Source of the DNA: a virus
Length of the DNA stretch: 64,000 nt
IMG/VR virus record: IMGVR_UViG_3300037475_000032
Location: 64,001-128,000 of that record
Reading direction: 5' to 3' (one strand)
The notes under the pieces were generated by a model. That model had not been told where the DNA came from and ran no database searches. It saw nothing but the letters and a program-made list of their open reading frames with translations. A program made the position numbers and the translations under genes. Shown here in pieces: positions 21,729 through 48,121 of this stretch (positions are counted from its first letter, which is position 1; each line of letters starts with the position of its first letter).

Positions 21729-21802
21729 GCTCCTCTGGTGTAACGGTTAGCACAACTGGTCTTATAAGCAGTCAGGTCGGGGTTCAAATCCTCGGGGGAG
21801 TA
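21729..21802 (+). tRNA. tRNA-Ile(TAT), bulged anticodon stem
   Basis: ACTG(G)T ctTATaa GCAGT. Confidence 0.75.
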
Positions 21803-21814
21803 CTTGCAGCATAC

Positions 21815-21889
21815 GGGTGTGTACCAAATGTTGGCTTTGGAACTGGCTCTTAACCAGAGTACACGCAGGTTCGATTCCTGTCACGCCCA
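21815..21889 (+). tRNA. tRNA-Lys(CTT), atypical
   Basis: CTGG ctCTTaa CCAG. Confidence 0.8.
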
Positions 21890-21890
21890 T

Positions 21891-22025
21891 GGGTGGTCCG
21901 CGAGGACATTGCGGGTTCGAGTCCCGTCATGGACACAACGCCGTTACCTGTGTGTACAGCAGGTGCGCTCGATTCTAGATAGAGCGAGGCCAAGTGCTCG
22001 TGTATGCTAACTGGTAAAGCAGCCC
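21891..22025 (+). ncRNA. circularly permuted tRNA-like RNA (YrlA-like topology)
   Basis: Variable arm, T arm and acceptor 3' strand precede the acceptor 5' strand and D arm. Confidence 0.6.
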
Positions 22026-22033
22026 TAACGCTT

Positions 22034-22108
22034 GTCGCCATCGTCTAGCCTGGTTCAGGACGCGGCCCTCTCACGGCCGAAACACGGGTTCAAATCCCGT
22101 TGGCGGTA
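22034..22108 (+). tRNA. tRNA-Glu(CTC)
   Basis: cloverleaf. Confidence 0.93.
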
Positions 22109-22135
22109 CTTGCTCAGATGTGGTATCCTACCGCC

Positions 22136-22771
22136 ATGAGTCGCGCTAGACCATGGAGGGATCAGGAGACCGGACAAACCCACTGGTTTGACTACCGTTC
22201 TTCCTCCGCCACAGTCGAGCAACTTGAGATCTTGGCCGATGCAGAGGGTCTTGATCTTGACGACCTACTTGACGAGGGCCTGTCGCAAAGGCAGGTGTTG
22301 TTTCGGCTACATGCCGTCACTAACCTCATCCCGGAGAGAGTCCTGGAGCGCAGGCAAGAACGCCTCGAACGCTCCCAGGTCGAACCGATCTGCCGGATAT
22401 GCAGCTTGTACGGATGGGAGTGCGAGGGTAAGATCACTCGTCACCATTTCGTGCCAAGGTGGCTCATGCGAGAGCTTGATAGCTACCAGACCTACGCCGC
22501 GAAGGCGAGGTGTACCATCCCCGTGTGTGTCGGTCGCCACCGCGATCTTCACTACAGGGAAAGTGATATTGACAAGAGCATCGTTCCGTACCTAACGGCT
22601 GAGGAGAAGGAGCTAGCACGCATCCTACTCCAAGAGCTAAAGGACGAGCGTCCAACGATCTACGAGTTGATCGGCGGCGGAAGTACTGCGAGCTACGAGT
22701 ACCAGCTTGTCCGAGACTTTAGGCGAGGAGGTTTCGAGTCAGTGACACATGGAGAAATTGAAGGTCCATAG
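22136..22771 (+). CDS. HNH-like hypothetical protein
   Basis: CRIC..ITRHH..PVCVGRHRDLH; TATCCT-N6-ATG leaderless start. Confidence 0.65.
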   Translation: MSRARPWRDQETGQTHWFDYRSSSATVEQLEILADAEGLDLDDLLDEGLSQRQVLFRLHAVTNLIPERVLERRQERLERSQVEPICRICSLYGWECEGKITRHHFVPRWLMRELDSYQTYAAKARCTIPVCVGRHRDLHYRESDIDKSIVPYLTAEEKELARILLQELKDERPTIYELIGGGSTASYEYQLVRDFRRGGFESVTHGEIEGP

Positions 22772-22811
22772 CCTTACGCCGTGAGTGAGGGCGAAAATAC
22801 TCACTCAGCTA

Positions 22812-22884
22812 CTCCTCGTGGTCCAGTGGATAAGACGCTGCCCTGCGAAGGCGGAGATCGGAGGTTCGAGTCCTCCCGAGGAGA
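22812..22884 (+). tRNA. tRNA-Arg(GCG)
   Basis: CTGCC ctGCGaa GGCGG. Confidence 0.9.
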
Positions 22885-22887
22885 CTA

Positions 22888-22959
22888 GATGCGGTGGCCC
22901 AAGTGAGAGGCAGCCCGACAAGGGAAGAGTTGCCGGAATCCAAACCCGGCTCGCATCTG
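22888..22959 (+). ncRNA. tRNA-like RNA with collapsed anticodon arm
   Basis: AGATGCGG/TCGCATCT stem, D-like arm, CCC gacaa GGG, GCCGG/CCGGC arm. Confidence 0.5.
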
Positions 22960-22973
22960 CTATTGTAGTTCTT

Positions 22974-23047
22974 GCCCATATCGCCTAACGGACATGGCAC
23001 CAGTCTTCGAAACTGGCACAATCCGGGTTCGACTCCCGGTGTGGGCG
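22974..23047 (+). tRNA. tRNA-Arg(TCG)
   Basis: cloverleaf. Confidence 0.92.
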
Positions 23048-23302
23048 CTAGGAAGGTAGCTCCTTCCCAGAGGGACGAGAGAAGTCCGCGACAACCAAGA
23101 TGGACTGTGAGGGAGTTGCGGGGTAAGGTTCGCTACCGGCTTACATCTGGGCTATTCAGTCAACGCACCAGAGGGCCAAAGGGTAGGTCCCATCTCTTCG
23201 TTCCTTGTCTTTAGGCTCCTGCCGCTGACCTGAAAAGGCGGGAGTAGGTCAGAAGGCCCACGGTGCGCTACCAGCACTGCGATGTTCGCCCGTGGGACCC
23301 TT

Positions 23303-23374
23303 GGGGTAGTCGTATAACGGCGATTACAGCAGCTTGCCATGTTGCAGACGGGGGTTCGACTCCCCTCTACCCCT
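23303..23374 (+). tRNA. tRNA-Gly(GCC)
   Basis: ttGCCat, U73. Confidence 0.9.
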
Positions 23375-23498
23375 CTTCGCCGCAGGCGATGGTGAGCGCA
23401 GTCAGGAGTGAGCACGCAGCAGCAAGTTAGTACGGTACAGTACGGTTGGGGACTCATAAACCCTATACTTGCGGCGCACGTCCGCACGTACTAATCAC

Positions 23499-23572
23499 GC
23501 ACTTGTAGCTCAGATGGTAAGAGCACTGGCTTGAAACCCCAGGTGTCGGAGAGTCGAAACCTCCCAAGTGCA
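23499..23572 (+). tRNA. tRNA-Phe(GAA), atypical T arm
   Basis: cloverleaf. Confidence 0.85.
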
Positions 23573-23863
23573 TGTAGTAGACGGCCGCTGTCCCTAGACT
23601 GGGGATAGAGGAAGTTCGGGACATCCTGGCCTGGGAAACTGGGTCGCTTCCGTAACCAGGAGGCATAGACAACTGACGTGTGGCGGGAGCCCTTGGCGCT
23701 TGAACCGAGCACGGTTGGTGAGGATGCAATCTCAAGCAGCGAAACCTAAGGGCTCTGCCTATGGTCATAGCGGGTTGGGAGCAGCGTGGGGATAACACCC
23801 TATACGCCACGCGCGAGCGTGAGAAAGATGGTCGTCCTAGACAGAATCCCGGCTACAGCTACA
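23573..23863 (+). ncRNA. rnpB: RNase P RNA (compact)
   Basis: CR-I GAGGAAGTTCGGGAC and CR-V ACAGAATCCCGGCTA pair as P4; P1, P2 (GACGGCC/GGTCGTC), P3 and P5 (CATCCT/AGGATG-CAA) are present. Confidence 0.87.
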
Positions 23864-23867
23864 GTAT

Positions 23868-23939
23868 GCCTGCTAAGCATAAATGGTGATGCACTGGTCT
23901 TGTAAACCAGATAACTGGGTTCGATTCCCAGAGTAGGCT
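23868..23939 (+). tRNA. tRNA-Thr(TGT)
   Basis: cloverleaf. Confidence 0.92.
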
Positions 23940-23968
23940 TCTCGCTCCATCCCTCGACTTAAGAGGTG

Positions 23969-24457
23969 ATGAGTGACTTTCGTGTGATCCAAGGATGCCC
24001 GTGTAACCCTACACTGGCCCCGTACATCGCCATGGTCTCTGAGGAGATCAACGGTGTCGTCAACAGTATCTATCGTGGTGCTGATGCCGAGTCGATCCTT
24101 CGAGCACACGGACACCAGAGTCAGGCCCAACTCTACAACGGTTGGATTCACAGGTTGCCGGGATACCTTCCCGCTAACCCTCCTGGCCGAAGCACTCACG
24201 AGCTTCGCTCCGATGGAGTCGCTTACGCGGGTCCGGTAGGTCGCAAGCTCGATTGGTGGCAGCAGGGCTTCGACGTGAATGACGATCAGGTCAATCACTG
24301 GAAGTCCGCAGCACGCAGCCATGGATGGGTACTCTTTCAGCCGTACAACAGCGGCTCCGAGTTCCACCACCTCAACTTCCATCAGCCTCCGCATCCGCCG
24401 AGTCTGAGAACGAGATTGAGGATCATCAAGTTGCGAGCGACGCTGCCACGTCACTAA
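23969..24457 (+). CDS. M15-like Zn peptidoglycan peptidase
   Basis: QAQLY..ANPPGRSTHE..DV..EFHH. Confidence 0.7.
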   Translation: MSDFRVIQGCPCNPTLAPYIAMVSEEINGVVNSIYRGADAESILRAHGHQSQAQLYNGWIHRLPGYLPANPPGRSTHELRSDGVAYAGPVGRKLDWWQQGFDVNDDQVNHWKSAARSHGWVLFQPYNSGSEFHHLNFHQPPHPPSLRTRLRIIKLRATLPRH

Positions 24458-24461
24458 TCAT

Positions 24462-24533
24462 GGGGGATTAGTGCTAATGGGAACACGCTGCCCTTGCAAG
24501 GCAGAGTTACGGGTTCGACTCCCGTATCCTCCA
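24462..24533 (+). tRNA. tRNA-Ala(TGC)
   Basis: G3:U70. Confidence 0.93.
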
Positions 24534-24535
24534 CT

Positions 24536-24603
24536 GCGCACGTAGTCTAAGTAGGACGCCCGCCATGAGGCGGGTAGTGCAGGTCCGACCCCTGCCGTGT
24601 GCT
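24536..24603 (+). ncRNA. tRNA-like RNA with 4-6 nt anticodon loop
   Basis: GCGCACG/CGTGTGC-U, CCCGCC atga GGCGGG, T arm GCAGG tccgacc CCTGC. Confidence 0.65.
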
Positions 24604-24607
24604 CTAT

Positions 24608-24678
24608 GCGGGTATGGTCTAATGGTATGACAAGTGCCTTCCAAGCTCTTGATGCCGGTTCGATTCCGGCTATCCGCT
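24608..24678 (+). tRNA. tRNA-Gly(TCC)
   Basis: cloverleaf. Confidence 0.92.
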
Positions 24679-24784
24679 CTCTGTGAGCCCCAGACGCGCC
24701 ATCCGTGCGGGAATAGACGGCCGTCACCAATACCGGAATGTGTCTCGGGTGTAAACGACCATGAACACGGCGCTCATAGTACCC

Positions 24785-24856
24785 GGTTCCATAGTGAAAC
24801 GGCCATCACGCTAGCCTGTCACGCTGGAGGTAGGGGTTCGATTCCCCTTGGGACCG
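24785..24856 (+). tRNA. tRNA-Asp(GTC)
   Basis: cloverleaf. Confidence 0.92.
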
Positions 24857-25003
24857 CTTAGGCTATACAGACCGGGCACATCAGCCCGGACGCTGAGCTA
24901 ACTCTCGTCGTCCTTGCCATGTGCCGCACCCCGGATTAGGGAGTACATGGGCGTCGAGTTACACGAGTAGCCGATCATCCGTGCAAGCGGTAGGTGAAAG
25001 CCA

Positions 25004-25074
25004 CGCTCTCAGGCGATGGCAGCCAAACGGAGTCATAATCCGTCTAGGTGTGGGTTCGAGTCCCACGGGAGCGA
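25004..25074 (+). tRNA. tRNA(CAT) Met/Ile2, atypical
   Basis: ACGGA gtCATaa TCCGT. Confidence 0.8.
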
Positions 25075-25149
25075 CTAACAACCGGGCGCGATATCCTCGA
25101 CACAGGACTCTCATCTTAGTTTTCTTTGAGTCCTGGCGCGGAATAAGTG

Positions 25150-31836: not shown

Positions 31837-31885
31837 TCGCACCTACCTACCTTTATTCGCTGCTCAAACTTGGAAGTAACAGGTG

Positions 31886-32890
31886 ATGACCGATCTAGTT
31901 CCCACATTCGTCCGCAAGGAGGGCATGGTCTATGCCATCCTTGAGGATCGAGTGATCGCAAGCGGGAAGGACTTCAACAAGGTGGAGAAGTCCGCCGTTG
32001 AGTATCTTGATGGACTCAAGACAACCCGCGCAGATCAGGAGAAGGAGAGCCGCCAGAAGGCTGCTACTCACATCGTTACCCCGAACGGGCTCAAGGGCGA
32101 GATCCTTGGGCGCACTGAGGGTATGTGGGGAGAGAAGGAGATCACGGTTCGCTTCGAGAACGGACGCATCGCCAAGTTCCAGGCACATGGCGGCAACGAC
32201 GACCAGATCCAGTACACAACTGAGGCCGCCGACGCACCGTCCAACCCAATCGAGGCGCTACAGCAGGAGCTTGATGCAGACTTCGGGCGCGACAAGGCTG
32301 CCCTTACCTCTCGCGTCGCTTCGCTCGACTCCATCATCTCAGAGGTCTCAAATCATCTCAGAGTCGGAGCCTCCTACACGGATGAGCAAGCTCTCTCGAA
32401 GATCGCTCTACAGGCTGAGCACGAGAAGGGTGAGGTTAACGACGCACTTGCTTACTTGGAGCAGGTTGACGCCGAGAACCTTGGCTACACACCTCCGGTC
32501 CACTCGGCTGTTGAGCAGGCAGAACTTGGACGTGCCAAGGGCGATAGCTGGCTTGACCATACGGTCCAGGCCATGATCGATGAGAGCGCAGGCATCGACT
32601 ACGACAAGATGCTTCGTGAGGAGCCGGGTCAGTTCGTCGCCAGTCTCGAAACAGGCACACTTGCCTCGCAGGGCGTCGTCAGCGAGCTTGCTCACTCACA
32701 CGTCATTGCCAAGACAGCTTCCTTCACAGGTGAGAATGTTGAGTCCTACCGTGATCTCTACGTCGCCGCCGTGGAGCAGGCCCGCAGAGCGGAGCTAGCG
32801 TCCCGTCAAGAGACAGCGAGGAAGGAGGCATCGGTGCAGGAGGATGACCTATCTGGCATCCCCGATGATGTCCTCTTCATGGGAAGGTAG
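31886..32890 (+). CDS. hypothetical virion-associated protein
   Basis: Between terminase and portal. Confidence 0.7.
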   Translation: MTDLVPTFVRKEGMVYAILEDRVIASGKDFNKVEKSAVEYLDGLKTTRADQEKESRQKAATHIVTPNGLKGEILGRTEGMWGEKEITVRFENGRIAKFQAHGGNDDQIQYTTEAADAPSNPIEALQQELDADFGRDKAALTSRVASLDSIISEVSNHLRVGASYTDEQALSKIALQAEHEKGEVNDALAYLEQVDAENLGYTPPVHSAVEQAELGRAKGDSWLDHTVQAMIDESAGIDYDKMLREEPGQFVASLETGTLASQGVVSELAHSHVIAKTASFTGENVESYRDLYVAAVEQARRAELASRQETARKEASVQEDDLSGIPDDVLFMGR

Positions 32891-32893
32891 AGC

Positions 32894-34933
32894 ATGAGCG
32901 ACTTTGGTGGAGTATTCGAGGTTCTTGCATCAGACGACTCACAGGCTCGTCTTGCATCCCGCAGAGCCCTCGTCCTTTCAGAATCACGCATCAACGAGCG
33001 TCTAGGCAGCTTCCTTGGCTCATCCAAGACCGCAGACGAGTTCGACGCTCGTCTCTCCTACGTCGAGGATGACTTCAAGGGGATCATTGCTGTAGCGTGT
33101 GAGGAGGTCGGCCACGGCAACGCCGAGGCCATCTACGCATCCCTCAAGGCTCATTACCGCCCAGCGGTACAAACTCGTACCGCTTCCGTGGTACACGAGG
33201 CCCGCAAGCCCAAGATGTGCCCGTACCACTCGGAGGTCGTGGACATCTCGCTTAGCGCCGGAGACCCGAAGGCCGGTTACGATGTCATGCAGTCACACGC
33301 ATGGGGCGGCAACCACTGCCAGGGTGACTGGGAGGGCAAGTGCAACTTCAAGCGCGAGATGGTCACTCAGTCATTCTGGGATGACCGCCAGAAGGCTCTT
33401 GATGACCAGAAGGCTGAGCGTCTACAGGCACAGCCCGATAACCCGGTCCCTGAGGGCGTTGATACGCCAACCGAGGACATCACCCCTTCCGAGTCCACGG
33501 AGCCTATTGGAGACGCCGGAGAGGGCTCTGATAGCAACGTTGTTGAGTTCCCCTCACCAGTGGATGGCGCACCCGACATCGAGGTGCCTATCGCTGTTGC
33601 TGCCTCCGTCCAGGATTGGCAGCGTCACGCAGGACTCATCAAGATGGCACTCACCCGCAAGGACTACAACCTGCTTGCCGGTGCCATCAAGAGTGCCCCC
33701 ATCAATAACCACGCCGAGGTTGCGGGGCACTTTGCCGATCATCTAGCCGACACCAACGAGCGCTTTGATCGTGACCGTTTCGTCAACGCCGCAACGCCTG
33801 AAAGCAGCGGAGAAAGCGGGGTCGAGTCCAAGGTGGCTGATGCCGCTCCTTCCCAGGAGAGCTTTCCGTGCCAGCAGTGCGGAACGACCGTAAGAGGCTT
33901 CCACGGGCAGGGAAACGGTGAGTGCCCTAACTGCGGCACCGCTCACCTCACAAACGGGCAGCGTGCCTCTAAGGACTACAACCCGTCTGACCAAAGCGAC
34001 GACTCCAACAAGAGCGTTCCATGCCCCGAGTGCGGAGGCGACGGCAAGACCAATGGCGGGAAGAAGTGCCCCCGCTGCAAGGGTCAGGGCCACGTCAACG
34101 ACTGGGGACCTAGCACCCTAGACGCCGTTAGCAGCCACACGGCTGTCATTGCCGGTGACAAGAAGTGGATACAGAAAGCCGTCAAGAAGCCGGGCGAGCT
34201 TCACAAGGATCTAGGCGTTCCTGAGGGAGAGAAGATTCCCGAGGAGAAGCTAGAGGAGGCCGAGCACAGTGACGACCCTAAGGTTCGTGAGCGTGCTCAG
34301 TTTGCCGAGAACGTCAAGGGCCTTGGAAAGGGCAAGAAGTCAGCGCTTGTTGAGCCAGCTAGTGGCAGCGGTGAGGATAATCTTACCGCGCATGAGCGCC
34401 AGTTGATTCAGGAAGGAAGGGCCAAGATCGGTCCAAATGGCATCTTCCAGTTGATAAACCCGGACATGCACACCCCTCCCGGCAAAGAGGCAAAGGTAGC
34501 TGATAACGGTAGCGGGAATACTGGCCTTGGTGGTCCTGAGCCTAAGATGGACAAGGCGCTCTGGACGCCCAAGAACGTTAAGAAGATCGAGGTCCCGAGC
34601 GACGAACATCCTACCAAGGAGAAGGACCCCATCCAGCCTATCAAGGCGGTTAACGATGATCCGCTTGAGGAGATCGGGGAGAAGACAACTGAGCGCGTGG
34701 ACCTGCCAGAGGCAGGCATCAACCTCGATGACTCTGGTTTCGCAGGCAACAACCAGGAGCAGGCACCCGGCACTAAGACGTGGACGGGCACCGATGGACT
34801 GGCCGATCCTGTTACCACACAGGCTTTCGCTAAGGCCGACGACGTAGACATTAACCCGCTTCGTCCGCTTCTCAATGACGGTATTGCCGGATTTGTTCCA
34901 GCATCGGTCATTGATCGTGTTACAGTAAGTTAG
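32894..34933 (+). CDS. multi-module (probable internal virion) protein with Zn ribbons
   Basis: CQQCG..CPNCG; CPECGGDG..CPRCKGQG; repeated [KRH]-x-A motifs. Confidence 0.7.
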   Translation: MSDFGGVFEVLASDDSQARLASRRALVLSESRINERLGSFLGSSKTADEFDARLSYVEDDFKGIIAVACEEVGHGNAEAIYASLKAHYRPAVQTRTASVVHEARKPKMCPYHSEVVDISLSAGDPKAGYDVMQSHAWGGNHCQGDWEGKCNFKREMVTQSFWDDRQKALDDQKAERLQAQPDNPVPEGVDTPTEDITPSESTEPIGDAGEGSDSNVVEFPSPVDGAPDIEVPIAVAASVQDWQRHAGLIKMALTRKDYNLLAGAIKSAPINNHAEVAGHFADHLADTNERFDRDRFVNAATPESSGESGVESKVADAAPSQESFPCQQCGTTVRGFHGQGNGECPNCGTAHLTNGQRASKDYNPSDQSDDSNKSVPCPECGGDGKTNGGKKCPRCKGQGHVNDWGPSTLDAVSSHTAVIAGDKKWIQKAVKKPGELHKDLGVPEGEKIPEEKLEEAEHSDDPKVRERAQFAENVKGLGKGKKSALVEPASGSGEDNLTAHERQLIQEGRAKIGPNGIFQLINPDMHTPPGKEAKVADNGSGNTGLGGPEPKMDKALWTPKNVKKIEVPSDEHPTKEKDPIQPIKAVNDDPLEEIGEKTTERVDLPEAGINLDDSGFAGNNQEQAPGTKTWTGTDGLADPVTTQAFAKADDVDINPLRPLLNDGIAGFVPASVIDRVTVS

Positions 34934-35236: not shown

Positions 35237-37835
35237 CTCAAGCTCACGACTAGACGCAGATCTCGCAAGGCTACGCCGCAACGGTCTAGTTTACACGCGC
35301 CATCCAGCCCGTGCGTCAAGCACGTACGAGGGTGCCGTCAAGGCATCACGCGACATGCACGAAGCCGCAGGTACGGATCTGCGCAACATGTCTATGCGCC
35401 TTGGCCGTCCGATCACGGAGGCTAACTACGACTCTCCTGAGGTGCAGCGCATCATGGGTGAGAACAACGCTCTCACTCAGGCGATGGGAAGCAAGCGCAT
35501 CGCCTACAAGAAGATGCAGCGTCAGTCGTCCTTGGCTCCGTCGTCACCGATGGGCGGCGATGTCTACAATGCCATCCCTCGCTTCTACGACCCGCTTGAG
35601 TACTGGGACCTAGCAGGTATCCCCTGGAACGTCGCGGACGAGGGACATCGCCACAAGCTCCATAAGTGGATGCGTCTCTACTACGCGACCCACTACCTTG
35701 TCCCAATCCTCATCGACATCTTTACCCGCTTCCCCCTCGTCGGGATGGAACTTGAGTGCAAGGACCCGAAGCTCAAGGAGATCTACGAGAACATCTTCCT
35801 CGACAACCTCAACTACGAAGACTTCCTCGTTGCCCTTGGGCGCGAGTTCTGGCTTTGTGGTGAGGCTTTCCCACTCGGCTCCTTTGACGAGGATTTGGGT
35901 GTCTGGGAGCACGAGGAGCTTATCAACCCCGAGGACGTTGTAATCAACAACTTTCCGCTGCTCAACACGCAGCAGTTGAAGATCGTCCCGCCCGACTATC
36001 TCCGCCGCATCGCTCAGACTAAGAGCCCTGCTCGTGAGTGGTACATGCTGCAAGAGAACTACGAGGAGTTGATCCCGTACCTTCTCAAGGGCGAGCACAT
36101 CCCGATCTCGCCAGTCATGTTCCGACAGGTCGGCAACAAGCTCAATCACTGGGACGACCACGGCACGCCGATTCTCCTTCGCGGTCTCCGCACGCTTCTC
36201 CACGAGGAGAAGCTACTAGCATCCCAGGACGCCATTGCCGAGCGTCTGTACAGCCCCTTCTTGCTCGCCAAGCTCGGCATCATGGACATGGGAGACGGGC
36301 TCCCGCCGTGGCTTCCCGGACCTGACGAGCTTGAGTCCGTACGTGACGATTTGGACATCGCTCTGTCGAGTGACTTCCGCGTCATGGTTCACCACTTCGG
36401 CCTTGACCTTACCTCCGTATTCGGGCGCGAGCAGATGCCTCGACTGGGAGACGATTTCGACCGCATCGAACGTCGTCTCATGCAGGTGTTTGGCGTTAAC
36501 CCCTCTCTGCTCTCGGCAGGCACCAACTCACAGCCCTATGCTAGCTCGGCGCTACAAGCCGAGTTCATGAACCAGATCCTTCGCACGTTCCAGAAGATGC
36601 TCAAGTTGCACTTTAAGGAACGTGCTCTTATCGTGGCCGAGGCACAGGGCCACCAGGAATACGAGCGCAAGGGTCAGACGCGCATCCCGGTCTTCGAGCG
36701 CATCGTTGTGTTCGATGAGGAAGGCAATAAGCAGATCAAGGAGGTTCCGAAGCTGCTTGTACCCGATCTCAAGTTTGCCACATTCGATCTTCGTGACGAG
36801 GCCACAGAGCGTCAGTTCCTCCAGTCACTACGCGGACTCGGAGTCCCGATTCCTGACGACAAGCTCATGGTCGGCATCGACTGGAAGATGAAGGATGTCA
36901 TCGAAGACTACAACCAGGAGCTTAAGACCAAGACCATCGCACAGCAGCGAGCCAAGATGGAGACCTACATTGCACTCACGGTGCAGGGTCTTCCGGTGCC
37001 GCTCGACTTGAAGGCAGAGTGCGAGTCCGTCCTTGTCCACGGCGCAGGAGCCGGTGGAGGTGCCCCACAGGGCGCTATGGAAGGCGGAGGCGGCATGGGC
37101 GGAGCACCGCCCCCAGGCGGAGGGGGAGCAGCCCCAGGAGGACCCCCTGGAGGCCCAGGAGGCGGTCCTGGGGGCTCACCTATCGTTATGCCTGGCGCAC
37201 CCCCTGGATTGGGCGGAGGACCCGGTACGGTGCCTCCAGGCGGAGGACCGCCCCCAATCACAGGTATGCAGCCTGGACCGGCTGGCACAGTACCACAAGT
37301 CTCGAACGAGAGACGACCAGGACTTACCTACAACACGAGCACATCTCGTGAGCGATTTGCTCCCAAGGAGGGAACAGCGCTTGCGGAGTTCATGGGCGAG
37401 CACCCGGACTTGGGTGTCCCGTTCACTGACTACGTGACCGACCATAACTCATCCGACCGTGATGCTGGAGAGATCGATCAGCTTGACCGTGACGAGATCG
37501 AGAGACTTCACTCGGAGTGGCCGGAGCACGCAGGCACCTACGCTCAGAGGGTTGCAGGTGAGATTGCGCAAAGAGTTTCCGCACTTGTAGAGGCAGAGAC
37601 AAGTGAAGCTGCTATAGTCGCCGACGAGGAGACAGACGATGGTGAATTCGTTCTTGGTGGTAACCAGGAACTAACAAAGGATGCAAGCGGTAATGAGATC
37701 ATCGTGGAGTCACCTCACAAGCGTCGAGTGAAGATCGAGGCAGAGTCGAAGAAGCGCTACTCAATAGTAGATCCACTAGCCCCTGAACTAGAAGAGGAAA
37801 CCGACAGTGAATCAGAATCAAAGCCTGCTAGATAA
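35229..37835 (+). CDS. probable portal protein with Gly/Pro-rich linker
   Basis: Near terminase; REFWLCGEAF, LINPED, GTPILLR, FGVNPSLL pattern typical of portals. Confidence 0.72.
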   Translation: MASSSSRLDADLARLRRNGLVYTRHPARASSTYEGAVKASRDMHEAAGTDLRNMSMRLGRPITEANYDSPEVQRIMGENNALTQAMGSKRIAYKKMQRQSSLAPSSPMGGDVYNAIPRFYDPLEYWDLAGIPWNVADEGHRHKLHKWMRLYYATHYLVPILIDIFTRFPLVGMELECKDPKLKEIYENIFLDNLNYEDFLVALGREFWLCGEAFPLGSFDEDLGVWEHEELINPEDVVINNFPLLNTQQLKIVPPDYLRRIAQTKSPAREWYMLQENYEELIPYLLKGEHIPISPVMFRQVGNKLNHWDDHGTPILLRGLRTLLHEEKLLASQDAIAERLYSPFLLAKLGIMDMGDGLPPWLPGPDELESVRDDLDIALSSDFRVMVHHFGLDLTSVFGREQMPRLGDDFDRIERRLMQVFGVNPSLLSAGTNSQPYASSALQAEFMNQILRTFQKMLKLHFKERALIVAEAQGHQEYERKGQTRIPVFERIVVFDEEGNKQIKEVPKLLVPDLKFATFDLRDEATERQFLQSLRGLGVPIPDDKLMVGIDWKMKDVIEDYNQELKTKTIAQQRAKMETYIALTVQGLPVPLDLKAECESVLVHGAGAGGGAPQGAMEGGGGMGGAPPPGGGGAAPGGPPGGPGGGPGGSPIVMPGAPPGLGGGPGTVPPGGGPPPITGMQPGPAGTVPQVSNERRPGLTYNTSTSRERFAPKEGTALAEFMGEHPDLGVPFTDYVTDHNSSDRDAGEIDQLDRDEIERLHSEWPEHAGTYAQRVAGEIAQRVSALVEAETSEAAIVADEETDDGEFVLGGNQELTKDASGNEIIVESPHKRRVKIEAESKKRYSIVDPLAPELEEETDSESESKPAR

Positions 37836-39120
37836 CGAGCCGATCTTCACCTTCGTCAAGGAGCAGATCGAGAATGGTGAAACCAACGTTTCGACTGCAA
37901 AGGCCGTCGAAGAGACCTTCGATTTTCCCACAACTGACGACTCGATCCGACGCTTCCGTGCTCGCCACGGTCTAGGGATTCCGACGAAGGACAAGGCAGG
38001 TGTGAAGGTAGAAGGGGACGAGGCGGTTGTTACTACACCAGCACGTCCCTACCCTCACATGGATGACCCGGACACCATGCTCCGTGAGCGTGGCCTTGAC
38101 CCGGAGAAGTGGAGCATCGAGGGCGCGACCGTTAACGAGTGGGATGGGCCGCAGTCGGGAGGTACGACCGTTACCTACCACCAGGCCAAGCTAGTACTCA
38201 AGCGCAAGAAGCCTGAGTGCAGCGTTCTTCCGGCACGCTCAGAGGGATGGGTTGCGCCTAAGCGTACCCCACGCGATCCGGGCAAGCCGCAGTTGATCGT
38301 CGTCACGGGCGACCAGCAGGCACCCTTCCATGACGAGGCCCTACACGCGGCCTTCTGCTCGTGGCTCGCTGAGAACCAGCCCGACCAGGGCGTCTTGCTC
38401 GGAGACACCATTGACCTGCCCGATATCTCCCGTCACCGTCTTGACCCCGAGAACACCGCCATCGTCAACGAGTGCATCCAGTCGGGATACGATGTCATCC
38501 GTGACTACGTGACATCCTCTGCGGATACCGAGTGGCAGATGCTTGAAGGTAACCACGACGAGCGCCTACGCAACATCCTTCTCGACAAGCCGAGTGTGCG
38601 TCCCCTCTACGGGGTCAAGCAGGCTGATACGGCTGAGGAAGACGGCGTACCCGTCCTTGCTGTGCCTCACTTGCTCCGCTTGGACGAGCTTGGAGTGAAG
38701 CACGTTAGCCCGCAAGGAGCTTACGACCTTGGACAGATTAACCTTGGGAACAAGCTCGCAGTACGACACGGCTGGATCGCCCGTCAGGGCAGCGGGGTAT
38801 CGGCGCTGGCAACCCTGGAGCACTTGGGGTACAGTGTCATCGTCGGCCACACTCATCGTCAGTCGATCATCTACAAGACGACTCACGACATCGACGGTGC
38901 AATCACGACCCTCACCGCTGCCGAAGCAGGGTGCATGTGTCGAGTCAACCAACAGCCGAATTCGGATGGTCGCAAGTGGCCGAACTTCACTCCGTTGCCT
39001 GATTGGCAGCAGGGATTCTCCACCGTGACTCTTCACCCGAATGGCTTCTTCCGAATCGAGAACGCAACCTTTGTAAATGGATCGCTCCTTTGGCGCGATC
39101 AGTGCTACACCGCCCGATAG
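37807..39120 (+). CDS. calcineurin-like metallophosphoesterase
   Basis: GDQQAPFHD, LGDTID, GNHDER, RHG, GHTHR. Confidence 0.88.
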   Translation: MNQNQSLLDNEPIFTFVKEQIENGETNVSTAKAVEETFDFPTTDDSIRRFRARHGLGIPTKDKAGVKVEGDEAVVTTPARPYPHMDDPDTMLRERGLDPEKWSIEGATVNEWDGPQSGGTTVTYHQAKLVLKRKKPECSVLPARSEGWVAPKRTPRDPGKPQLIVVTGDQQAPFHDEALHAAFCSWLAENQPDQGVLLGDTIDLPDISRHRLDPENTAIVNECIQSGYDVIRDYVTSSADTEWQMLEGNHDERLRNILLDKPSVRPLYGVKQADTAEEDGVPVLAVPHLLRLDELGVKHVSPQGAYDLGQINLGNKLAVRHGWIARQGSGVSALATLEHLGYSVIVGHTHRQSIIYKTTHDIDGAITTLTAAEAGCMCRVNQQPNSDGRKWPNFTPLPDWQQGFSTVTLHPNGFFRIENATFVNGSLLWRDQCYTAR

Positions 39121-39129
39121 GAGGGTGAC

Positions 39130-39327
39130 ATGGAAGACAAATCAACCAAGCCAAAGAAGCGTCGTCGCAATCAGCAGACGTATCGACACAAGACGAACGC
39201 TGTACATGTGACCCTCTATGACCCGCACGGGGAGACTGTGCCTGCTACCGTCAGGCACAAGGCTGAACAGGCAATCCTCGACATCGCCCTATCCAACAAC
39301 CTTCTCATCAACATCGCCACAACGTAG
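39130..39327 (+). CDS. hypothetical protein
   Basis: GGAGG RBS. Confidence 0.65.
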   Translation: MEDKSTKPKKRRRNQQTYRHKTNAVHVTLYDPHGETVPATVRHKAEQAILDIALSNNLLINIATT

Positions 39328-39401
39328 TCAAGTGACCCGTACAGAGAAATGGTTGGATCGCCTTGGTGCGGTCCTCCGTTTCATACTCAGGAAGTGAAGT
39401 C

Positions 39402-39575
39402 ATGGCAACAGTAAGGCTCTCGGATCGAGAGACACCAAAGAGGGCTCCGAAGTGGTGCAAACGATGTGGACGTAAGCACAATCGCTTCGAGCCCTGTGGG
39501 CTAGTGGAGATCACTCGCACCGCCAAGAGCGGTCGTGAGGTGACACGCCTAGCTCTCCCAGCACAGGAGGCATAG
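39402..39575 (+). CDS. small Zn-binding protein
   Basis: CKRCGRKH..C. Confidence 0.55.
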   Translation: MATVRLSDRETPKRAPKWCKRCGRKHNRFEPCGLVEITRTAKSGREVTRLALPAQEA

Positions 39576-40226
39576 ATGCAACTCATCGGAATCAACGGCT
39601 TCATGGGGTCGGGGAAGGACACGACCTACGGCTTCATCGCCAAGCACCACAGGGGCGCTTTGCGCGTGGCCTTCGCCGACAAGCTCAAGAGTATCGCGGC
39701 TCTGGCTATCGGATTCGATCCAGAGATCGACACACAGGGACTTGTCGATCTCATGAACGAGTGCAAGGAATCCTGGGACTTCGAGGTCACCAAGAGGCTT
39801 GCCACGATGCCGGGCGAGCAGGCGTGCATGGAAGTTACGCACTTCACCGGCCGTCAGTACCTCCAGTGGCTAGGAGCCAATGCCCGAGTCGTGTTCGGAG
39901 ACACCTTCTGGATCGATCAGGTACTCCCTCAGCCCTACGAGGTCTGGAAGGATCATCGTAAAAGCATCGACAACGACCGTGTACTGAGGGAACGCTACCC
40001 CGACACGGACCTTGTAGTCGTGACGGACGTGCGCTACCCTAACGAGGCGGAGCGCGTGCAGCAGCTTGGGGGAAGGGTCTGGGAGGTTGTGAGACCAGGG
40101 CTCACTAGCGATGGTCATAGCTCCGAGATCCCTCTGCCAAGGGAGCTAGTTGATACAGTGATTCAGAACGATGGAAGCCTGGCGGAACTGTCCGCTACGG
40201 TCAAGGAGGCGTTGGAGAATGGCTAG
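39576..40226 (+). CDS. deoxynucleoside monophosphate kinase
   Basis: IGINGFMGSGKDT, FADKLK, LQWLG, TDVRYPNE, HSSE. Confidence 0.9.
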   Translation: MQLIGINGFMGSGKDTTYGFIAKHHRGALRVAFADKLKSIAALAIGFDPEIDTQGLVDLMNECKESWDFEVTKRLATMPGEQACMEVTHFTGRQYLQWLGANARVVFGDTFWIDQVLPQPYEVWKDHRKSIDNDRVLRERYPDTDLVVVTDVRYPNEAERVQQLGGRVWEVVRPGLTSDGHSSEIPLPRELVDTVIQNDGSLAELSATVKEALENG

Positions 40227-40983
40227 AGAGGCACTACAGCTTGTTAGCAGGGCCGATATCACGGAACCGATTCCTCAGCCGCAGGCTGCTCCAAAGCTCA
40301 GGCTCGTGCCGTCGTCGGGCCACGATGGGAAGGCCAAGTTCGCTATCGACATTGATAGCATCCTCTACGACTTCTCGACTCCGGCTCGTGAGGCGTTCTT
40401 GAAGCTCTCGGAAACGACGGGAGACAGGGGCCTGCTTCGTGGCACGTACATCTCATGGGTCGAGTGGCGCACGCCAGCGGATGTCTGTGGCCTTGAGACA
40501 TGGATGGAGGTCATCTCCATGTGCCATGCCCCGGAGGTCATCTTGCGTCAGAAGCCCTTTGCGGGCGCAGTCGATACCCTCCAGGCATTGGTCAGCGAGG
40601 GCTACGATCTCATGTACTGCTCGAACCGCAATGAGGAAGCAGCAGACGCGACCCGTCAGTGGCTCCAGCAGGAGGGCTTCCCTCTTGGCGACCACGTTGA
40701 AGTGAGATGCACGATGGAGGACAAGTGCTCGTACCTGGCCGAGTGCCAGTACATCATCGATGATCGTCCCAAGACCCTCATTGACTTCATCCATTCACCC
40801 AACTGGGACCAGGCGAAGGGCGAGCGCAAGGGCCTGTCGATCATGTACGAGTACAACCGTGCTCTGACCGACATCCCGAACATCTTCCTTTCACCCACAT
40901 GGGCGGGATTGGCCGGATGGTTGGTCCGCAAGGGCTTCCTCCCCACGCCGCCACACACTGCATTGGAGACACATGCCGGATAG
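40219..40983 (+). CDS. HAD 5'(3')-nucleotidase-like protein
   Basis: IDIDSILYDF, SNR, IIDDRP, YN. Confidence 0.8.
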   Translation: MAREALQLVSRADITEPIPQPQAAPKLRLVPSSGHDGKAKFAIDIDSILYDFSTPAREAFLKLSETTGDRGLLRGTYISWVEWRTPADVCGLETWMEVISMCHAPEVILRQKPFAGAVDTLQALVSEGYDLMYCSNRNEEAADATRQWLQQEGFPLGDHVEVRCTMEDKCSYLAECQYIIDDRPKTLIDFIHSPNWDQAKGERKGLSIMYEYNRALTDIPNIFLSPTWAGLAGWLVRKGFLPTPPHTALETHAG

Positions 40984-41212
40984 CGATACCCCTAACCCCA
41001 ACCTAGAGACGATCCCAGTCCTCGTACCTCACTTGGAGACGCTTCTCTCCACTTTGGAAAGAGCGCTCAACAAGAGCATGGCCGAGGATTTGGTCGAACA
41101 CTACAGGACCCAGCGAGGACGTAACCCTCAGCAGTCCGCTATCACCACTGCACTCGACAAGGCAGTCCAGCGCGTAGCCGGATACCTGGGAGTCCAAGAG
41201 GATTATGAGTGA
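40973..41212 (+). CDS. hypothetical protein
   Basis: Coupled ORF. Confidence 0.6.
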   Translation: MPDSDTPNPNLETIPVLVPHLETLLSTLERALNKSMAEDLVEHYRTQRGRNPQQSAITTALDKAVQRVAGYLGVQEDYE

Positions 41213-41552
41213 CTTTCCGGCTGATAGCCATTTCTCTCAGGCTATAGAGGCAGAGAGAAGGGCGCATCCTCTCCAAGTTGTTCACCCATCTGAGGCTCCG
41301 CGTGATCCTTACGACGATCAGATCAAGGTCGGGCGCACGGAGCTTGAAAGCTGGTACAACGAGGTGAATGATCTGGTCCGCAGGTTGGGTGTGAGCACCA
41401 GCACAGGCTCACAGCAGCCCCGTAGGGACTCCCAGAAGCGCGCACAAAGGGCTTCGAGCAGCCAAGGAGGGGGAAGGGCCTCTATGGACACGACGGAGCT
41501 TCACGAGCGCCTGACGGATCACCGTAACGCCCTCTACCGCTATCTCCACTAG
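41205..41552 (+). CDS. hypothetical protein
   Basis: Coupled ORF. Confidence 0.6.
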   Translation: MSDFPADSHFSQAIEAERRAHPLQVVHPSEAPRDPYDDQIKVGRTELESWYNEVNDLVRRLGVSTSTGSQQPRRDSQKRAQRASSSQGGGRASMDTTELHERLTDHRNALYRYLH

Positions 41553-41569
41553 GCTGCTATCCTACCCGC

Positions 41570-42043
41570 ATGGCAGCGAAGCTATTCATCCTCGTAGGCG
41601 TCCCCGGATGCGGCAAGAGCACATGGGCCAGAAGGGTCCTTGGTGGCGTGCATGTAAGCAGCGATGAAATCCGTCAGGAGCTATTCGGAGACGAGTACAA
41701 CGCCAAGCAGAACCAGCAGGTCTTCGAGCGTTTCTACAAGGAAATCGACAAGTTCCTCCTGACCGGCATCAACGTCATCGCCGATGCTACCAACCTGAAC
41801 AGCTTCGCTCGCACTGAGCTACGTCGCATCGCCGACATAGTAGGGTGCGAGACTCACTTGTTCTTCTTCACCAACGTTGAGCAGGCGCTTCTTCGCAACG
41901 CCGAGAGAGACGGGGAGCAGCATGGTTCCAAACGAGTCCCCAACGAGGGCATGACGCTCATGCTGGAGAAGTACGAACTTGCGAGACGCGATATCCCACT
42001 GGAGTCGTACAACTCTGTCACCTACATAGGAAGCGTGTCATGA
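41570..42043 (+). CDS. polynucleotide kinase-like P-loop protein
   Basis: GVPGCGKST, SSDEIR, DATN, RNAER..VP. Confidence 0.85.
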   Translation: MAAKLFILVGVPGCGKSTWARRVLGGVHVSSDEIRQELFGDEYNAKQNQQVFERFYKEIDKFLLTGINVIADATNLNSFARTELRRIADIVGCETHLFFFTNVEQALLRNAERDGEQHGSKRVPNEGMTLMLEKYELARRDIPLESYNSVTYIGSVS

Positions 42044-44209: not shown

Positions 44210-47200
44210 ATGTATATGTGGGACCCGAACAGCATCAGTCAGGATCAGTTGCACGAATACCGCAACGCCGCTGAATCGGCATGGGGCGATGACACACGTC
44301 ATCCTGACTTCGTAGGGCACCCAGACCCAAGTGCGGGCCAGTGCTACGTCACGTCCAAGTGGCTCACGGGCGAGCTTGGCGGTCATGTTGGGTTGAAGAA
44401 TGGTCATTACTTCTGGGTCTCACCGGACAAGAGCCACGTCATTGATCTGACCGGCGATCAGTTCTCTAGTCCACCACCTTCGGGCAGGATGAACTTCCTG
44501 GACGGCCAGCCCGTGGATTCAGAGGACGAAGCCTATGAGCCCGAGACACGCGGATGGCGACCAGGACCCATCATGTTCAAGCGTGCTAATCACCCGCTCT
44601 ACAAGGGATTCAGGATCAAGGCCGATCCTCAGCCTCCGCAGGATCAGAGAGATTGGGAAGACCTGGAACAGTCACCTCGCATCAACGACCGTCTCCAGCG
44701 CTTCACTCGTCGTGCGAACGCTGCTCTCACCAATCCCACGAGTCGCACAGCCGATCTCATGGGAATCGGGAACCCGATGAGTGAACCGCAGGCAGAAGAG
44801 GATCTGAACCAGCGTTACCTTCACGATACAATGAGTGATCTGCAAATGACGCAGGAACCAATCGACCGAGAGTACAAGTTCTTCTATGGACACGGACAAC
44901 TACACGTATCACCCGTTCATTCTCACGACGAACTCCGAGATCACTCTGGGACATCCCCTGACGAGAACGGACCAATCGCCGTGGGTTACGTTCATGTTCA
45001 CGGAGGAGATGCTGTTTGGTCTATTGAGACTAACGTTGCCGCTCGCGGACTCGTTCGCGTCCTTAAGGACTACAGCAAGACTGTGGGTTGGAAATGGAAC
45101 GGAGTGGTTGGAGGCGACGGAGCACCCATCCATGATGACTTCGGCGCTACGAAGTCTATGTGGTACAAGGCCAACGCTGATGGAGAGGTACAGATCGCAG
45201 ATGGACCTTTCCGAGGAGCCTCCCGCATCGACATCGTTGGCAGGACCGCCCATTATGCTCGATCCGCGTCTACCAGCAGTTATGGCGATGCTCTCAGAGA
45301 ATGGGCCGACGACTTCGGATACCGCCTAGCCGAGTACCCAGGCGGCACGGACATGACCGACCGCACAAAGAACTGGGAGGACTTGGAGCTTCACAACAAC
45401 TCCGACCCCGAATGGGACCCGGAGAAGGCATACGACGGAGCGCCTATTGGTCCTCTCACATGCGGCACATGCGGCTTCGAGGCACCTGACTTCAATACCC
45501 TCATCCTCCATCGCAGACTGCACGAGGGAGAGGACGAAGACCGCATCCAGGATGGTCACTTCCCGACGCTCAACGACCGTGACGATACGCTACCGCTTAG
45601 GCGCAGGAACGTCAACCCTACGGCGTCACCTCTTGCCTCTTTCCGCGAAGCATCAGTGGTGGATGGCTTCGACCTGTACGCGAGCCTGTGGGGATACGAC
45701 CGTGACGAGGGATTGCGCTTCTACGGTGGTTACCTGAATGGTCAACTTCTCGGCTACGGGGTCGTGCGTCCCGGCGATGATGGAGCCGAGGTCGTCATGA
45801 TCCACTCATCCATCCCCAACGTCGGCATCGGTACGGTACTCGCTGAGAAGATCAAGCAGCACTACCCGGTTCTGACCACGCACGCCGATAGTCCCGAGGG
45901 CGAACGCCTTGCCAAGCGCATGGGGATGGTCAATGTCGAGGGTCAGCTATACAAGTGGGCCGCAGGCGAAGAACCGAAGGACATGATCCAGGCCCCCGTC
46001 CCGTTTATCTACGACATCCAGCAAGACCACATCACCACGGGTCATCCGGGCATGAAGACATCGGACATCATGGGCCAGTTCACGCCCGGTGGTATAGTTG
46101 AGGGCTACTACGAGCCGGGCGGCAAGGTGGTCATCAACACGTCCACCAACATGCCGTACAGCACGTACCACATGATGCAGCTATGGTATTGGACGCACCC
46201 ACAAATGCAAATCGTCGGCCTTGAACTAGAAGACCAGCAGGGCAAGAGGCAGAAGCTAGCGGCTACTGAGATCGGCCCCTACCTCAAGACGCTCGTGGGA
46301 ACCGACGCCGCTGCATGGAACGCCTACCAGGCGCTACGCAATGCAGGCGGGAAGGTCTATGCCGTAGGTGGCGCAGTACGCGATGCTCTGCTTGGCAAGG
46401 ACCCCAAGGATATTGACCTGATGGTCTCCGGCGTTCCGCCCGAGCAGGTCTCTCATGTCCTTGAACAGCTTCCTGGCCGCGTAGACTTGACTGGTAAGCG
46501 CTTCGGTGTCTACCGCTACAAGACAAAGGGTCAAGAGGTCGAGATTGCTCTGCCACGCGAGGACACCTACGATGGTGAGCGTCGCGGTCAGGGCAAGATC
46601 ACCGTTGATCCTAGCCTTCCGGTTGAGGATGACCTAAGGCGTCGTGACTTTACTGTCAACAGCATGGCCGTGGATCTTGACACAGGTAAGCTCATCGACC
46701 CATACGGAGGCGAGAAGGATGCCGAGTCCCACACGCTTAGAACCACTCACCCTTCGTCCTTCGAGGAGGACCCAACTCGCCTTGTACGTGCGCTTGTGGC
46801 TTCTTCCCGCCACGGTCTGGTTCCAGACGAGAGGACCCGTCAGGAGATGGCAGAGAACGCATCGCGCCTCGACCGTGAGTCCCCCGATGCCCTTAAGCAG
46901 CAGCTAGACAAGCTGCTTGAAAGCCCCAATCCGGCAGGGGCACTCAGACTAGCCCATGACACAGGTGTCCTGCGTCATCTATTCCCTGAGGTCGATGCGA
47001 ACTTCGACTACGATCAGAACAACACGCATCACTCATACTCGCTGGGTGAGCACTCACTGAACGTGCTCGACAACGCGAGTCGTCTGACTACGGACCCAGA
47101 TCTTCGTCTCGCTGCCCTGCTCCACGATCAGGGCAAGCCGGACTCGGCATGGGTAGACCCGGAGAAGGGCACGACTCACTACTACGAAAAGTTCATCGAC

Positions 47201-47701
47201 GGCCAGCCTGTAGGAGCCGATCACGCACAGGTGGGAGCCGACATGGCCGAGAAGCGCCTGCGCGAGACCTACAACTTCCCGGTGGCTCGCATCCGTCGTG
47301 TGCGTGAACTGATTGAACACCACATGTTCCCGGCCTTCTCGTCACCCAAGGGCGCACGCAAGTTCCTCAACCGTGTAGGCGACCACGCTGACGATCTCCT
47401 TACGCTGCGCGAAGCCGACATGACCGGCAAGGGGCAGAGCGAGGAGGAAGTCGCTGAAAGGACCAGCGCCGATAGGATGCGCAATCTCGTGGAGCAGGCC
47501 CGTCAGGCAGGCGCACCCACAGATCAGTCGTCCCTCAGTCTCAACGGCAACGACATTGTTGGCATGGGAGTGAAGCCCGGACCACAGGTCGGGCAGATCC
47601 TCCGCCAGTTGACCAATGATGTGGTTGAGGAACCGCAGTTGAACGACAGAGACGCCCTCACTCAGCGAGCACAGGAGTACATCAATGCACTTCCAGCATA
47701 G
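44210..47701 (+). CDS. multidomain protein: YunG-like, GNAT-like, CCA-adding enzyme (class II NTase) + HD
   Basis: GQCYVTS..HYF..IDLTGDQF; GIGT; VGGAVRD..KDID, DLRRRDFTVN, FEEDPTRLVR, LLHDQGK. Confidence 0.9.
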   Translation: MYMWDPNSISQDQLHEYRNAAESAWGDDTRHPDFVGHPDPSAGQCYVTSKWLTGELGGHVGLKNGHYFWVSPDKSHVIDLTGDQFSSPPPSGRMNFLDGQPVDSEDEAYEPETRGWRPGPIMFKRANHPLYKGFRIKADPQPPQDQRDWEDLEQSPRINDRLQRFTRRANAALTNPTSRTADLMGIGNPMSEPQAEEDLNQRYLHDTMSDLQMTQEPIDREYKFFYGHGQLHVSPVHSHDELRDHSGTSPDENGPIAVGYVHVHGGDAVWSIETNVAARGLVRVLKDYSKTVGWKWNGVVGGDGAPIHDDFGATKSMWYKANADGEVQIADGPFRGASRIDIVGRTAHYARSASTSSYGDALREWADDFGYRLAEYPGGTDMTDRTKNWEDLELHNNSDPEWDPEKAYDGAPIGPLTCGTCGFEAPDFNTLILHRRLHEGEDEDRIQDGHFPTLNDRDDTLPLRRRNVNPTASPLASFREASVVDGFDLYASLWGYDRDEGLRFYGGYLNGQLLGYGVVRPGDDGAEVVMIHSSIPNVGIGTVLAEKIKQHYPVLTTHADSPEGERLAKRMGMVNVEGQLYKWAAGEEPKDMIQAPVPFIYDIQQDHITTGHPGMKTSDIMGQFTPGGIVEGYYEPGGKVVINTSTNMPYSTYHMMQLWYWTHPQMQIVGLELEDQQGKRQKLAATEIGPYLKTLVGTDAAAWNAYQALRNAGGKVYAVGGAVRDALLGKDPKDIDLMVSGVPPEQVSHVLEQLPGRVDLTGKRFGVYRYKTKGQEVEIALPREDTYDGERRGQGKITVDPSLPVEDDLRRRDFTVNSMAVDLDTGKLIDPYGGEKDAESHTLRTTHPSSFEEDPTRLVRALVASSRHGLVPDERTRQEMAENASRLDRESPDALKQQLDKLLESPNPAGALRLAHDTGVLRHLFPEVDANFDYDQNNTHHSYSLGEHSLNVLDNASRLTTDPDLRLAALLHDQGKPDSAWVDPEKGTTHYYEKFIDGQPVGADHAQVGADMAEKRLRETYNFPVARIRRVRELIEHHMFPAFSSPKGARKFLNRVGDHADDLLTLREADMTGKGQSEEEVAERTSADRMRNLVEQARQAGAPTDQSSLSLNGNDIVGMGVKPGPQVGQILRQLTNDVVEEPQLNDRDALTQRAQEYINALPA

Positions 47702-47919: not shown

Positions 47920-48113
47920 TGCCCAAGCTGGAGTTTCACGATTACATCGCTATGTGCGAAGATCCAGAGACGGGTCAGAAAGCCACTTTTCGCTTCCGAG
48001 CAAGCTCAGATGCACACGCCGATAGGGAGGCTCGTGATGGCTGGTTTGGCCTTCTAGCACCGCCTCCTAAGGAGCGCTGGGAAGCATTGAAGGTAGACGT
48101 AGCTAGGGTGTAA
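47916..48113 (+). CDS. hypothetical protein
   Basis: Coupled ORF. Confidence 0.55.
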   Translation: MMPKLEFHDYIAMCEDPETGQKATFRFRASSDAHADREARDGWFGLLAPPPKERWEALKVDVARV

Positions 48114-48121
48114 TACGTGCA

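Follow-up and report, generated by a model that had tools for sequence, protein, structure and literature searches.

A modular protein ending in a CCA-adding enzyme as candidate head cargo of an uncultured soil actinophage

We analyzed a 64,000-nucleotide (nt) stretch of viral DNA, here called the window, which comprises bases 64001-128000 of the complete 160,765-bp IMG/VR record IMGVR_UViG_3300037475_000032, a genome with direct terminal repeats. Our subject is one open reading frame (ORF) of 1163 amino acids (aa), in which five N-terminal modules (M1 to M5) precede a CCA-adding enzyme and tripeptides of the form [KR]-x-A recur near the module borders. The true start of this ORF is probably the ATG at 44216, its third codon, because residue 3 is the first one in the relatives and in the Atlas record, with a GGGAG 8 nt ahead of this ATG. 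Terminase, portal, rIIA, and rIIB genes are all present within the window. The portal is 40% identical to that of Bixzunavirus (Cluster C mycobacteriophages) and the capsid protein is 54% identical to TinyTim gp99, and the phage is an uncultured soil 161-kb myovirus-type actinophage that is distant kin of the Cluster C mycobacteriophages. The parts of the ORF, in window coordinates, are as follows.

44210..47701, plus strand: whole ORF, 1163 aa and stop
44210..44743, plus strand: M1, aa 1-178, YunG-like domain with invariant C45, H66, and D79
44744..44752, plus strand: joint 1, RTA, aa 179-181, opening a predicted disordered linker
44753..45322, plus strand: M2, aa 182-371, no convincing fold match, alpha/beta core at 217-371
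45323..45331, plus strand: joint 2, RLA, aa 372-374, with a conserved E-Y-P-G-G next, in a disordered linker
45332..45610, plus strand: M3, aa 375-467, linker, C2H2-type zinc finger, linker
45455-45523, plus strand: C2H2-type finger of M3, aa 416-438, C418-x2-C421-x12-H434-x3-H438
45611..45961, plus strand: M4, aa 468-584, GNAT acetyltransferase fold
45644-45652, plus strand: REA, aa 479-481, inside the GNAT fold of M4
45953-45961, plus strand: KWA, aa 582-584, ending the last strand of M4
45962..46261, plus strand: M5, aa 585-684, conserved and beta-rich, no convincing fold match, ending in KLA (682-684)
46253-46261, plus strand: joint 5, KLA, aa 682-684, at the C-terminal end of M5
46262..47698, plus strand: CCA module, aa 685-1163, class II tRNA nucleotidyltransferase, RNA-binding, HD, and C-terminal tRNA-binding regions

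The first-pass annotation had read this ORF as ending in a CCA-adding enzyme with a class II nucleotidyltransferase and an HD domain, and Pfam, PHROGs, TIGR02692, and invariant motifs all bear this out. In both Pfam and PHROGs, residues 714-1152 match a class II tRNA nucleotidyltransferase with an HD domain; the Pfam matches are to the PolyA_pol head (PF01743, aa 716-844, 2.4e-26), PolyA_pol_RNAbd (aa 873-930), HD (PF01966, aa 946-1043, 1.7e-9), and tRNA_NucTran2_2 (aa 1076-1152); the HDIG model TIGR00277 reaches 32.4 bits and so exceeds its cut-off of 27.6. Among curated families, the best is TIGR02692, tRNA_CCA_actino, which is matched over model positions 21-459 of 466 with 218.1 bits, a score that does not reach the equivalog cut-off of 438.8 bits. 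The poly(A) polymerase model pcnB scores lower (122 bits), and CCA enzymes in the PDB match at 1e-29. In 61 sequences, the residues of GGxVRD (G720, G721, R724, and D725) and DxD (D734 and D736) are invariant, as are RRD (811-813), D854 and R857 of EDxxR, and H972 and D973 of the HD motif, with E853 nearly so. Judged on its sequence, the last module is a class II CCA-adding enzyme of the actinobacterial type that carries an HD phosphohydrolase. It has the head, neck, HD, tail, and catalytic motifs of stand-alone CCA enzymes (TIGR02692, the E. coli multifunctional Cca with HD, and PHROG 2244), and, unlike them, it follows a 684-residue N-terminal train of five unrelated modules.

For the N-terminal modules we relied on two AlphaFold models, built on family alignments, with a mean predicted local distance difference test (pLDDT) score of 84. 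Together with Pfam, these models agree with the domain list given earlier for the chain (YunG-like, unknown, C2H2-like finger, GNAT, unknown, and CCA/HD). In M1, Pfam YunG matches aa 14-87 at 2.3e-5 with 25 bits, below its cut-off of 27, and C45, H66, and D79 are invariant in 63 sequences; the model places C45 at the N-terminus of a helix (45-56) and has strands at 66-70 and 76-79, all with pLDDT above 90. The best match of M1 in the fold-search tool VIA is 2hly (Z 7.3), followed by protein glutaminase, LapG, SseI, and arylamine N-acetyltransferase at Z 4.5-5.1; these scores are modest, in the range that the tool calls common, and the matches are mutually consistent. M1 is predicted to be a transglutaminase/papain-like Cys-His-Asp thiol enzyme.

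In M3, C418, C421, and H434 of the finger are invariant and H438 is present, the model forms a beta-beta-alpha unit (strands 416-417 and 424-425, helix 428-438) with pLDDT of about 93, and Pfam zf-C2H2 gives weak matches in relatives. The GNAT fold of M4 spans 468-586, with 117 residues aligned to 1y9k by VIA at Z 13.2 and a root-mean-square deviation of 2.2 A; 204 VIA chains reach a Z of at least 8, Foldseek gives a match at 1e-4, the Pfam GNAT match is weak (493-552, 0.046), and the acetyl-CoA-binding x-x-G-x-G motif is present as N-V-G-I-G. Two modules, M2 and M5, are without a known fold match. The fold search with M2 gave weak matches only (Z up to 5.1), a Foldseek comparison of the aa 1-375 model with PDB structures turned up just weak gelsolin-like rows (TM below 0.2) that were not used, and for M5 there was no convincing fold match and the Atlas gave no usable one. 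With hidden Markov models of M1 to M5, neither the phage genome nor the TinyTim locus yielded a second copy.

A profile-free search of 1.8 billion representatives yielded 133 relatives. The fusion is conserved across 98 protein clusters from metagenomes, with identity down to 41%, and dozens of independent metagenomic contigs, as long as 170 kb, encode the full-length architecture. No phage record matched the gene by Megablast, and tblastn of the whole protein against 50,697 phage records matched the CCA part only, from residue 724. We are highly confident that this is a modular "polyvalent" protein bearing a CCA enzyme.

The first-pass annotation had also noted that [KR]-x-A motifs fall at apparent domain boundaries. 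We set the borders independently, from BLAST breakpoints in relatives (178/179, 375, 475/476, 584, and 684), and found that RTA, RLA, KWA, and KLA, four of the five motifs, end no more than 3 residues from such a border (P = 0.0002) and that all five end no more than 6 residues away (P = 7e-5). The boundary claim holds for these four, and the CCA enzyme does start just after KLA, as had been stated. It fails for REA: domain parsing of the AlphaFold models, which gave folds for M1, the finger, and GNAT, puts this tripeptide within GNAT and not between domains. RTA is kept strictly in 71 of 88 relatives and in relaxed form in 83, with a flank identity of 0.38, and is followed by predicted disorder at 181-189 and a conserved D-x-x-G-D-A-Y-P-G. 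RLA is kept strictly in 65 of 80 relatives (relaxed, 75), with predicted disorder at 376-392; KLA is kept in 75/77, KWA strictly in 39/85 (relaxed, 61/85), and REA in 27/61. The flanks of RTA179, RLA372, and KLA682 reach only 0.38-0.62 identity.

The motif is also overrepresented. The whole protein holds 21 copies of [KR]-x-A versus 9.2 +/- 2.7 in shuffles, and the excess, about threefold, is confined to residues 1-684 (12 versus 3.9, z 4.4), with none in the CCA part (9 versus 5.5, z 1.7). The N-terminal parts of 96 relatives carry 863 copies where 422 are expected. That the fusion arose from mis-assembly or a sequencing error, with the motifs there by chance, is extremely improbable given the dozens of independent contigs with the full-length architecture, the location of the ORF within a complete genome with terminal repeats, and the motif placement (P = 0.0002). 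A DNA-level cause of the joints was dropped, as the codons at the 21 sites have no nucleotide motif in common.

Relatives reveal extensive shuffling of the modules around these joints. They include M1 alone (about 160 aa), M2-M3, M2 as a stand-alone protein, M4-M5, M5 alone, and chains of up to 2163 aa; M4 is missing as a block from some, and Fic, 2H/Acb1-like domains, and zinc ribbons are swapped in among others. Relatives without M1 open with M-x-[KR]-x-A-D and so retain the motif as a short leader, and N-terminal extensions attach via K-x-[AG]. The last three residues of M5 fit [KRH]-x-[ASG] in 58 of 60 relatives, nearly always as K/R-[LVI]-A, and many natural C-termini fall exactly at the M5 end. 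In contig L083, an HNH homing-endonuclease gene (6386-7108) lies exactly at the M5/CCA joint, after K-V-A, splitting the protein into a 783-aa part that ends in HKVA-stop and, beyond the HNH gene, a separate 489-aa CCA gene. Inserts behave likewise: the one between M5 and the CCA enzyme of P0086 (residues 698-822) is flanked by KLA on both sides and is 2H phosphoesterase-like, with weak Pfam matches to Acb1 anti-CBASS (7.5e-5) and 2'-5' RNA ligase (3.9e-4), and those of P0074 and P0075 terminate in KTA. Where the CCA module is internal, [KR]-x-A-S comes next in 3/4 such relatives. Together, the protease-type joints between modules gain comparative support, as they are conserved and modules are swapped, inserted, and split exactly there, and we lean toward the view that the chain is cut at them.

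Separately, P0032 has an intein-like insert of about 240 aa within M2 (residues ~200-440), as judged by eye.

Over the 177 ORFs of the genome, the ratio of observed to expected [KR]-x-A is 1.10, and two ORFs stand out. The second of these is the 1163-aa ORF (21 versus 9.3, z 4.4). The first is a 777-aa ORF at genome positions 13860-16193 (21 versus 7.6, z 6.2), directly upstream of the cement and capsid genes. It matches the head maturation protease family PHROG 18299 at 6e-19, its H110 and S184 are invariant, and behind the protease domain comes a long tail that is disordered in part; a Pfam search of this ORF gave nothing. Its homologues from related viral contigs are enriched in the motif in all 26 cases (z 2.3-6.0), an N-terminal KYA is kept in 26/26, and each of four sites in the tail, where conservation is otherwise poor, in 23-24. 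About 70 relatives share a conserved capsid-protein leader, M-x(3-8)-R-x-[AV]. Twelve control patterns, including [KR]A, [KR]..A, A.[KR], [DE].A, [KR].G/S/E, and [LIV].E (dots standing for x), were not enriched in either protein, which disfavors a general helix or composition bias as the cause.

The same pattern appears in a cultured phage. In the Bixzunavirus TinyTim, the homologue of the protease protein, gp97 (1369 aa, L002 28775-32884), has 33 copies versus 17.8 (z 4.1), and the capsid leader ends in RFA. The most economical reading would make [KR]-x-A the cleavage site of the head protease and the 1163-aa protein one of its substrates, because the tripeptide is specifically enriched in the protease/scaffold protein, ends the capsid and protease leaders, and marks the module borders. 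Since the substrates of prohead proteases sit inside the prohead, cleavage would in turn imply packaging. Packaging and delivery at infection, which the first-pass annotation had proposed, we infer solely from this link to the protease, and for the whole chain of inference, head-protease cutting with packaging, we would stop just short of an even chance.

Several side observations concern these proteins. The 777-aa ORF has invariant clusters that resemble zinc sites (C194, C197, C208, and H210; C301, C304, C313, and C316), and TinyTim gp97 has clusters such as KNA-S-RTA-AV-RTA between segments. A 335-aa and a 679-aa ORF in the terminase-portal interval (window 31883-34933) show mild motif enrichment (z 2.3 and 2.0) and could be further substrates of the protease. 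PF10263 (SprT-like) was not found in the genome at E 0.001.

The chain might instead be a polyprotein that is processed in the cytoplasm and never packaged, with its own M1, or another phage or host protease that recognizes [KR]-x-A, as the cutter. The invariant C45, H66, and D79 of M1 and its fold matches, which include the protease LapG (Z 5.0) along with 2hly, fit such a role, and polyvalent proteins often hold a peptidase proposed to free the other domains (PMC5512222). Yet the joints persist in many relatives that lack M1, and contig L084 has no M1 in the vicinity of the gene. The motif also marks the head protease/scaffold protein and the capsid leader, where the head protease is the expected enzyme, and the fold scores of M1 are modest for a fold that also covers deamidases and acyltransferases. 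We consider processing of this kind improbable.

A second alternative is that the protein stays uncut and unpackaged in the cytoplasm as a multidomain enzyme, in which the CCA/HD part matures the CCA-less tRNAs of the phage, the N-terminal modules assist in tRNA binding, modification, or regulation, and the tripeptides are structural ends or binding motifs. We regard this as unlikely, if clearly less so than cytoplasmic processing, and the observations in this paragraph weigh on its side, against cutting by the head protease with packaging, or both. The window holds 46 tRNA genes and a transfer-messenger RNA (tmRNA) gene in one array (14646-25075), and all 46 tRNA genes are without an encoded 3' CCA, so a cytoplasmic CCA enzyme is needed anyway. 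Stand-alone CCA enzymes occur commonly in phages, where they count as RNA-repair genes (PMC7824862). The ORF sits away from the head module, among nucleotide and RNA end-healing genes, with metallophosphoesterase, deoxynucleoside monophosphate (dNMP) kinase, HAD-like phosphatase, and P-loop PNK-like kinase genes in the run from portal to ORF (window 37807-42043). In many distant relatives, M5 stands immediately before the CCA module, and the wide conservation of this pair suggests that the two act together. Within the protein, KWA and KLA end terminal beta-strands of confidently folded modules, and REA belongs to helix alpha1 of the GNAT fold, past strand beta1, at no border; in these models, the conservation of all three could be structural. 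Several [KR]-x-A tripeptides within the folded CCA/HD enzyme are equally conserved and obviously not cut sites, so conservation by itself proves nothing. As a genome-wide marker, a short N-terminal [KR]-x-A leader occurs in 19 of 177 ORFs, about the chance level. The N-terminus of the protein shows no visible leader for capsid targeting and runs straight into the folded M1, with its first [KR]-x-A (aa 18-20) helical; stand-alone M2 relatives do have a short leader that closes with the motif. In the literature we found neither experimentally mapped cleavage sites nor virion proteomes for Cluster C or this clade.

On the other hand, a cytoplasmic enzyme leaves unexplained the threefold excess of [KR]-x-A within 684 aa, with only the head protease/scaffold protein standing out besides, and the presence of the motif in disordered linkers, in the short leaders before M2, and at the ends of inserted modules. 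The split and single-module forms also show that the covalent link is dispensable.

Further features of the region touch on processing and transcription. A T directly follows the tRNA 3' end in 43 of the 46 genes, which suggests a uniform 3'-processing signal. A k-mer search of intergenic DNA returned tRNA T-loop words and GTTTAAAC only, and upstream regions held no motif linkable to late genes. A near-identical pre-start sequence, GGGT(G)TAATACGTG followed by 2-3 nt and ATGCC, occurs at window 48100-48121, before the downstream 369-aa ORF (48122), and at genome 12787-12808, before a 272-aa ORF of the head module; this common sequence may be a -10-like element for leaderless transcripts.

Returning to head-protease cutting, we propose the following course of events. 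The head protease, a putative Ser-His enzyme of HK97 type with a presumed assemblin-like fold, would cut after the Ala of [KR]-x-A. The chain would enter the prohead and be cut at three or four joints, after A181, A374, and A684 and perhaps A584, and the pieces would accompany the DNA into the next host. In the new cell, the CCA/HD enzyme would rebuild or complete tRNA 3' ends, with the phage's own 46 CCA-less tRNAs and host tRNAs damaged by defence nucleases or nucleotidyltransferase toxins as beneficiaries, and the thiol enzyme and GNAT would modify host targets. The assemblin fold is common to HK97-type phage prohead proteases, and the sites of herpesvirus assemblin read (V/L/I)-x-Ala then Ser, cut after the Ala in P3-x-Ala; P3 is hydrophobic in assemblin sites and basic in the phage motif. 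In its most far-reaching form, the proposal makes capsid cargo of the CCA/HD, GNAT, and thiol enzymes: they would be translated as a single chain, an HK97-type head protease would separate them at [KR]-x-Ala, and they would enter the host together with the DNA. Repair or completion of tRNA 3' ends could then begin in the first minute after infection, for example against actinobacterial tRNA-targeting defence toxins, and the [KR]-x-Ala rule would hold for head maturation in cultured Cluster C phages (Bxz1/TinyTim type) as well. This full account is somewhat less probable than cutting with packaging taken by itself.

The proposal has precedents among polyvalent proteins of phages and conjugative elements, which Iyer, Burroughs, Anand, de Souza, and Aravind (2017) proposed to be injected with the DNA, their domains freed by proteolysis (PMC5512222). 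Like those, the 1163-aa protein combines unrelated enzyme modules in one chain, shuffled among related elements, and is encoded by a phage with portal and terminase. Module types in common are GNAT, a Pol-beta-type nucleotidyltransferase, and a possible peptidase, along with 2H phosphoesterase and Fic in relatives. The term "CCA" is absent from that paper (PMC5512222), so no CCA-adding tRNA nucleotidyltransferase is named there. The proposed cutter also differs, being the head-maturation protease acting at a defined tripeptide rather than an in-chain zincin (MPTase), and the phage protein is without ArdC, MuF, or another hallmark delivery domain.

A parallel for the cutting itself, by prohead proteases of the same structural class, lies in the internal head proteins IPI-III and Alt of T4, cut by gp21 at [LI]-x-E (PMC9026906), and in the head and ejection proteins of SPN3US/phiKZ, where gp245 cuts after A-x-E (PMC10052503). 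In these phages, propeptides, short or long, end in the motif, and cargo enzymes are delivered with the DNA. As in them, a three-residue P3-x-P1 rule would extend over capsid protein, protease, and cargo, here on the evidence of sequence patterns. Unlike in them, the motif is basic-x-Ala and not x-x-Glu, the phage protease is of HK97 type and fused to a scaffold-like tail, and whole enzyme modules would be parted instead of a propeptide being removed.

This analysis contributes a basic-x-Ala rule, open to testing in the cultured Cluster C mycobacteriophages, and puts forward a CCA-adding enzyme as candidate cargo. Known virion cargo consists mostly of polymerases, anti-restriction proteins, and ADP-ribosyltransferases. 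If the proposal is true, it would provide a testable basic-x-Ala cleavage rule for head proteases across a large actinophage group that, as sequence statistics suggest, includes the well-studied Cluster C mycobacteriophages, and the first case of translation-maintenance enzymes riding inside a virion. It would also open a route to finding cargo in uncultured phages, in which the motif is read from the protease/scaffold gene and other proteins enriched in it are then sought. Even on the ordinary reading, as a cytoplasmic enzyme, the family offers a compact catalogue of independently functioning modules that accompany a phage CCA enzyme.

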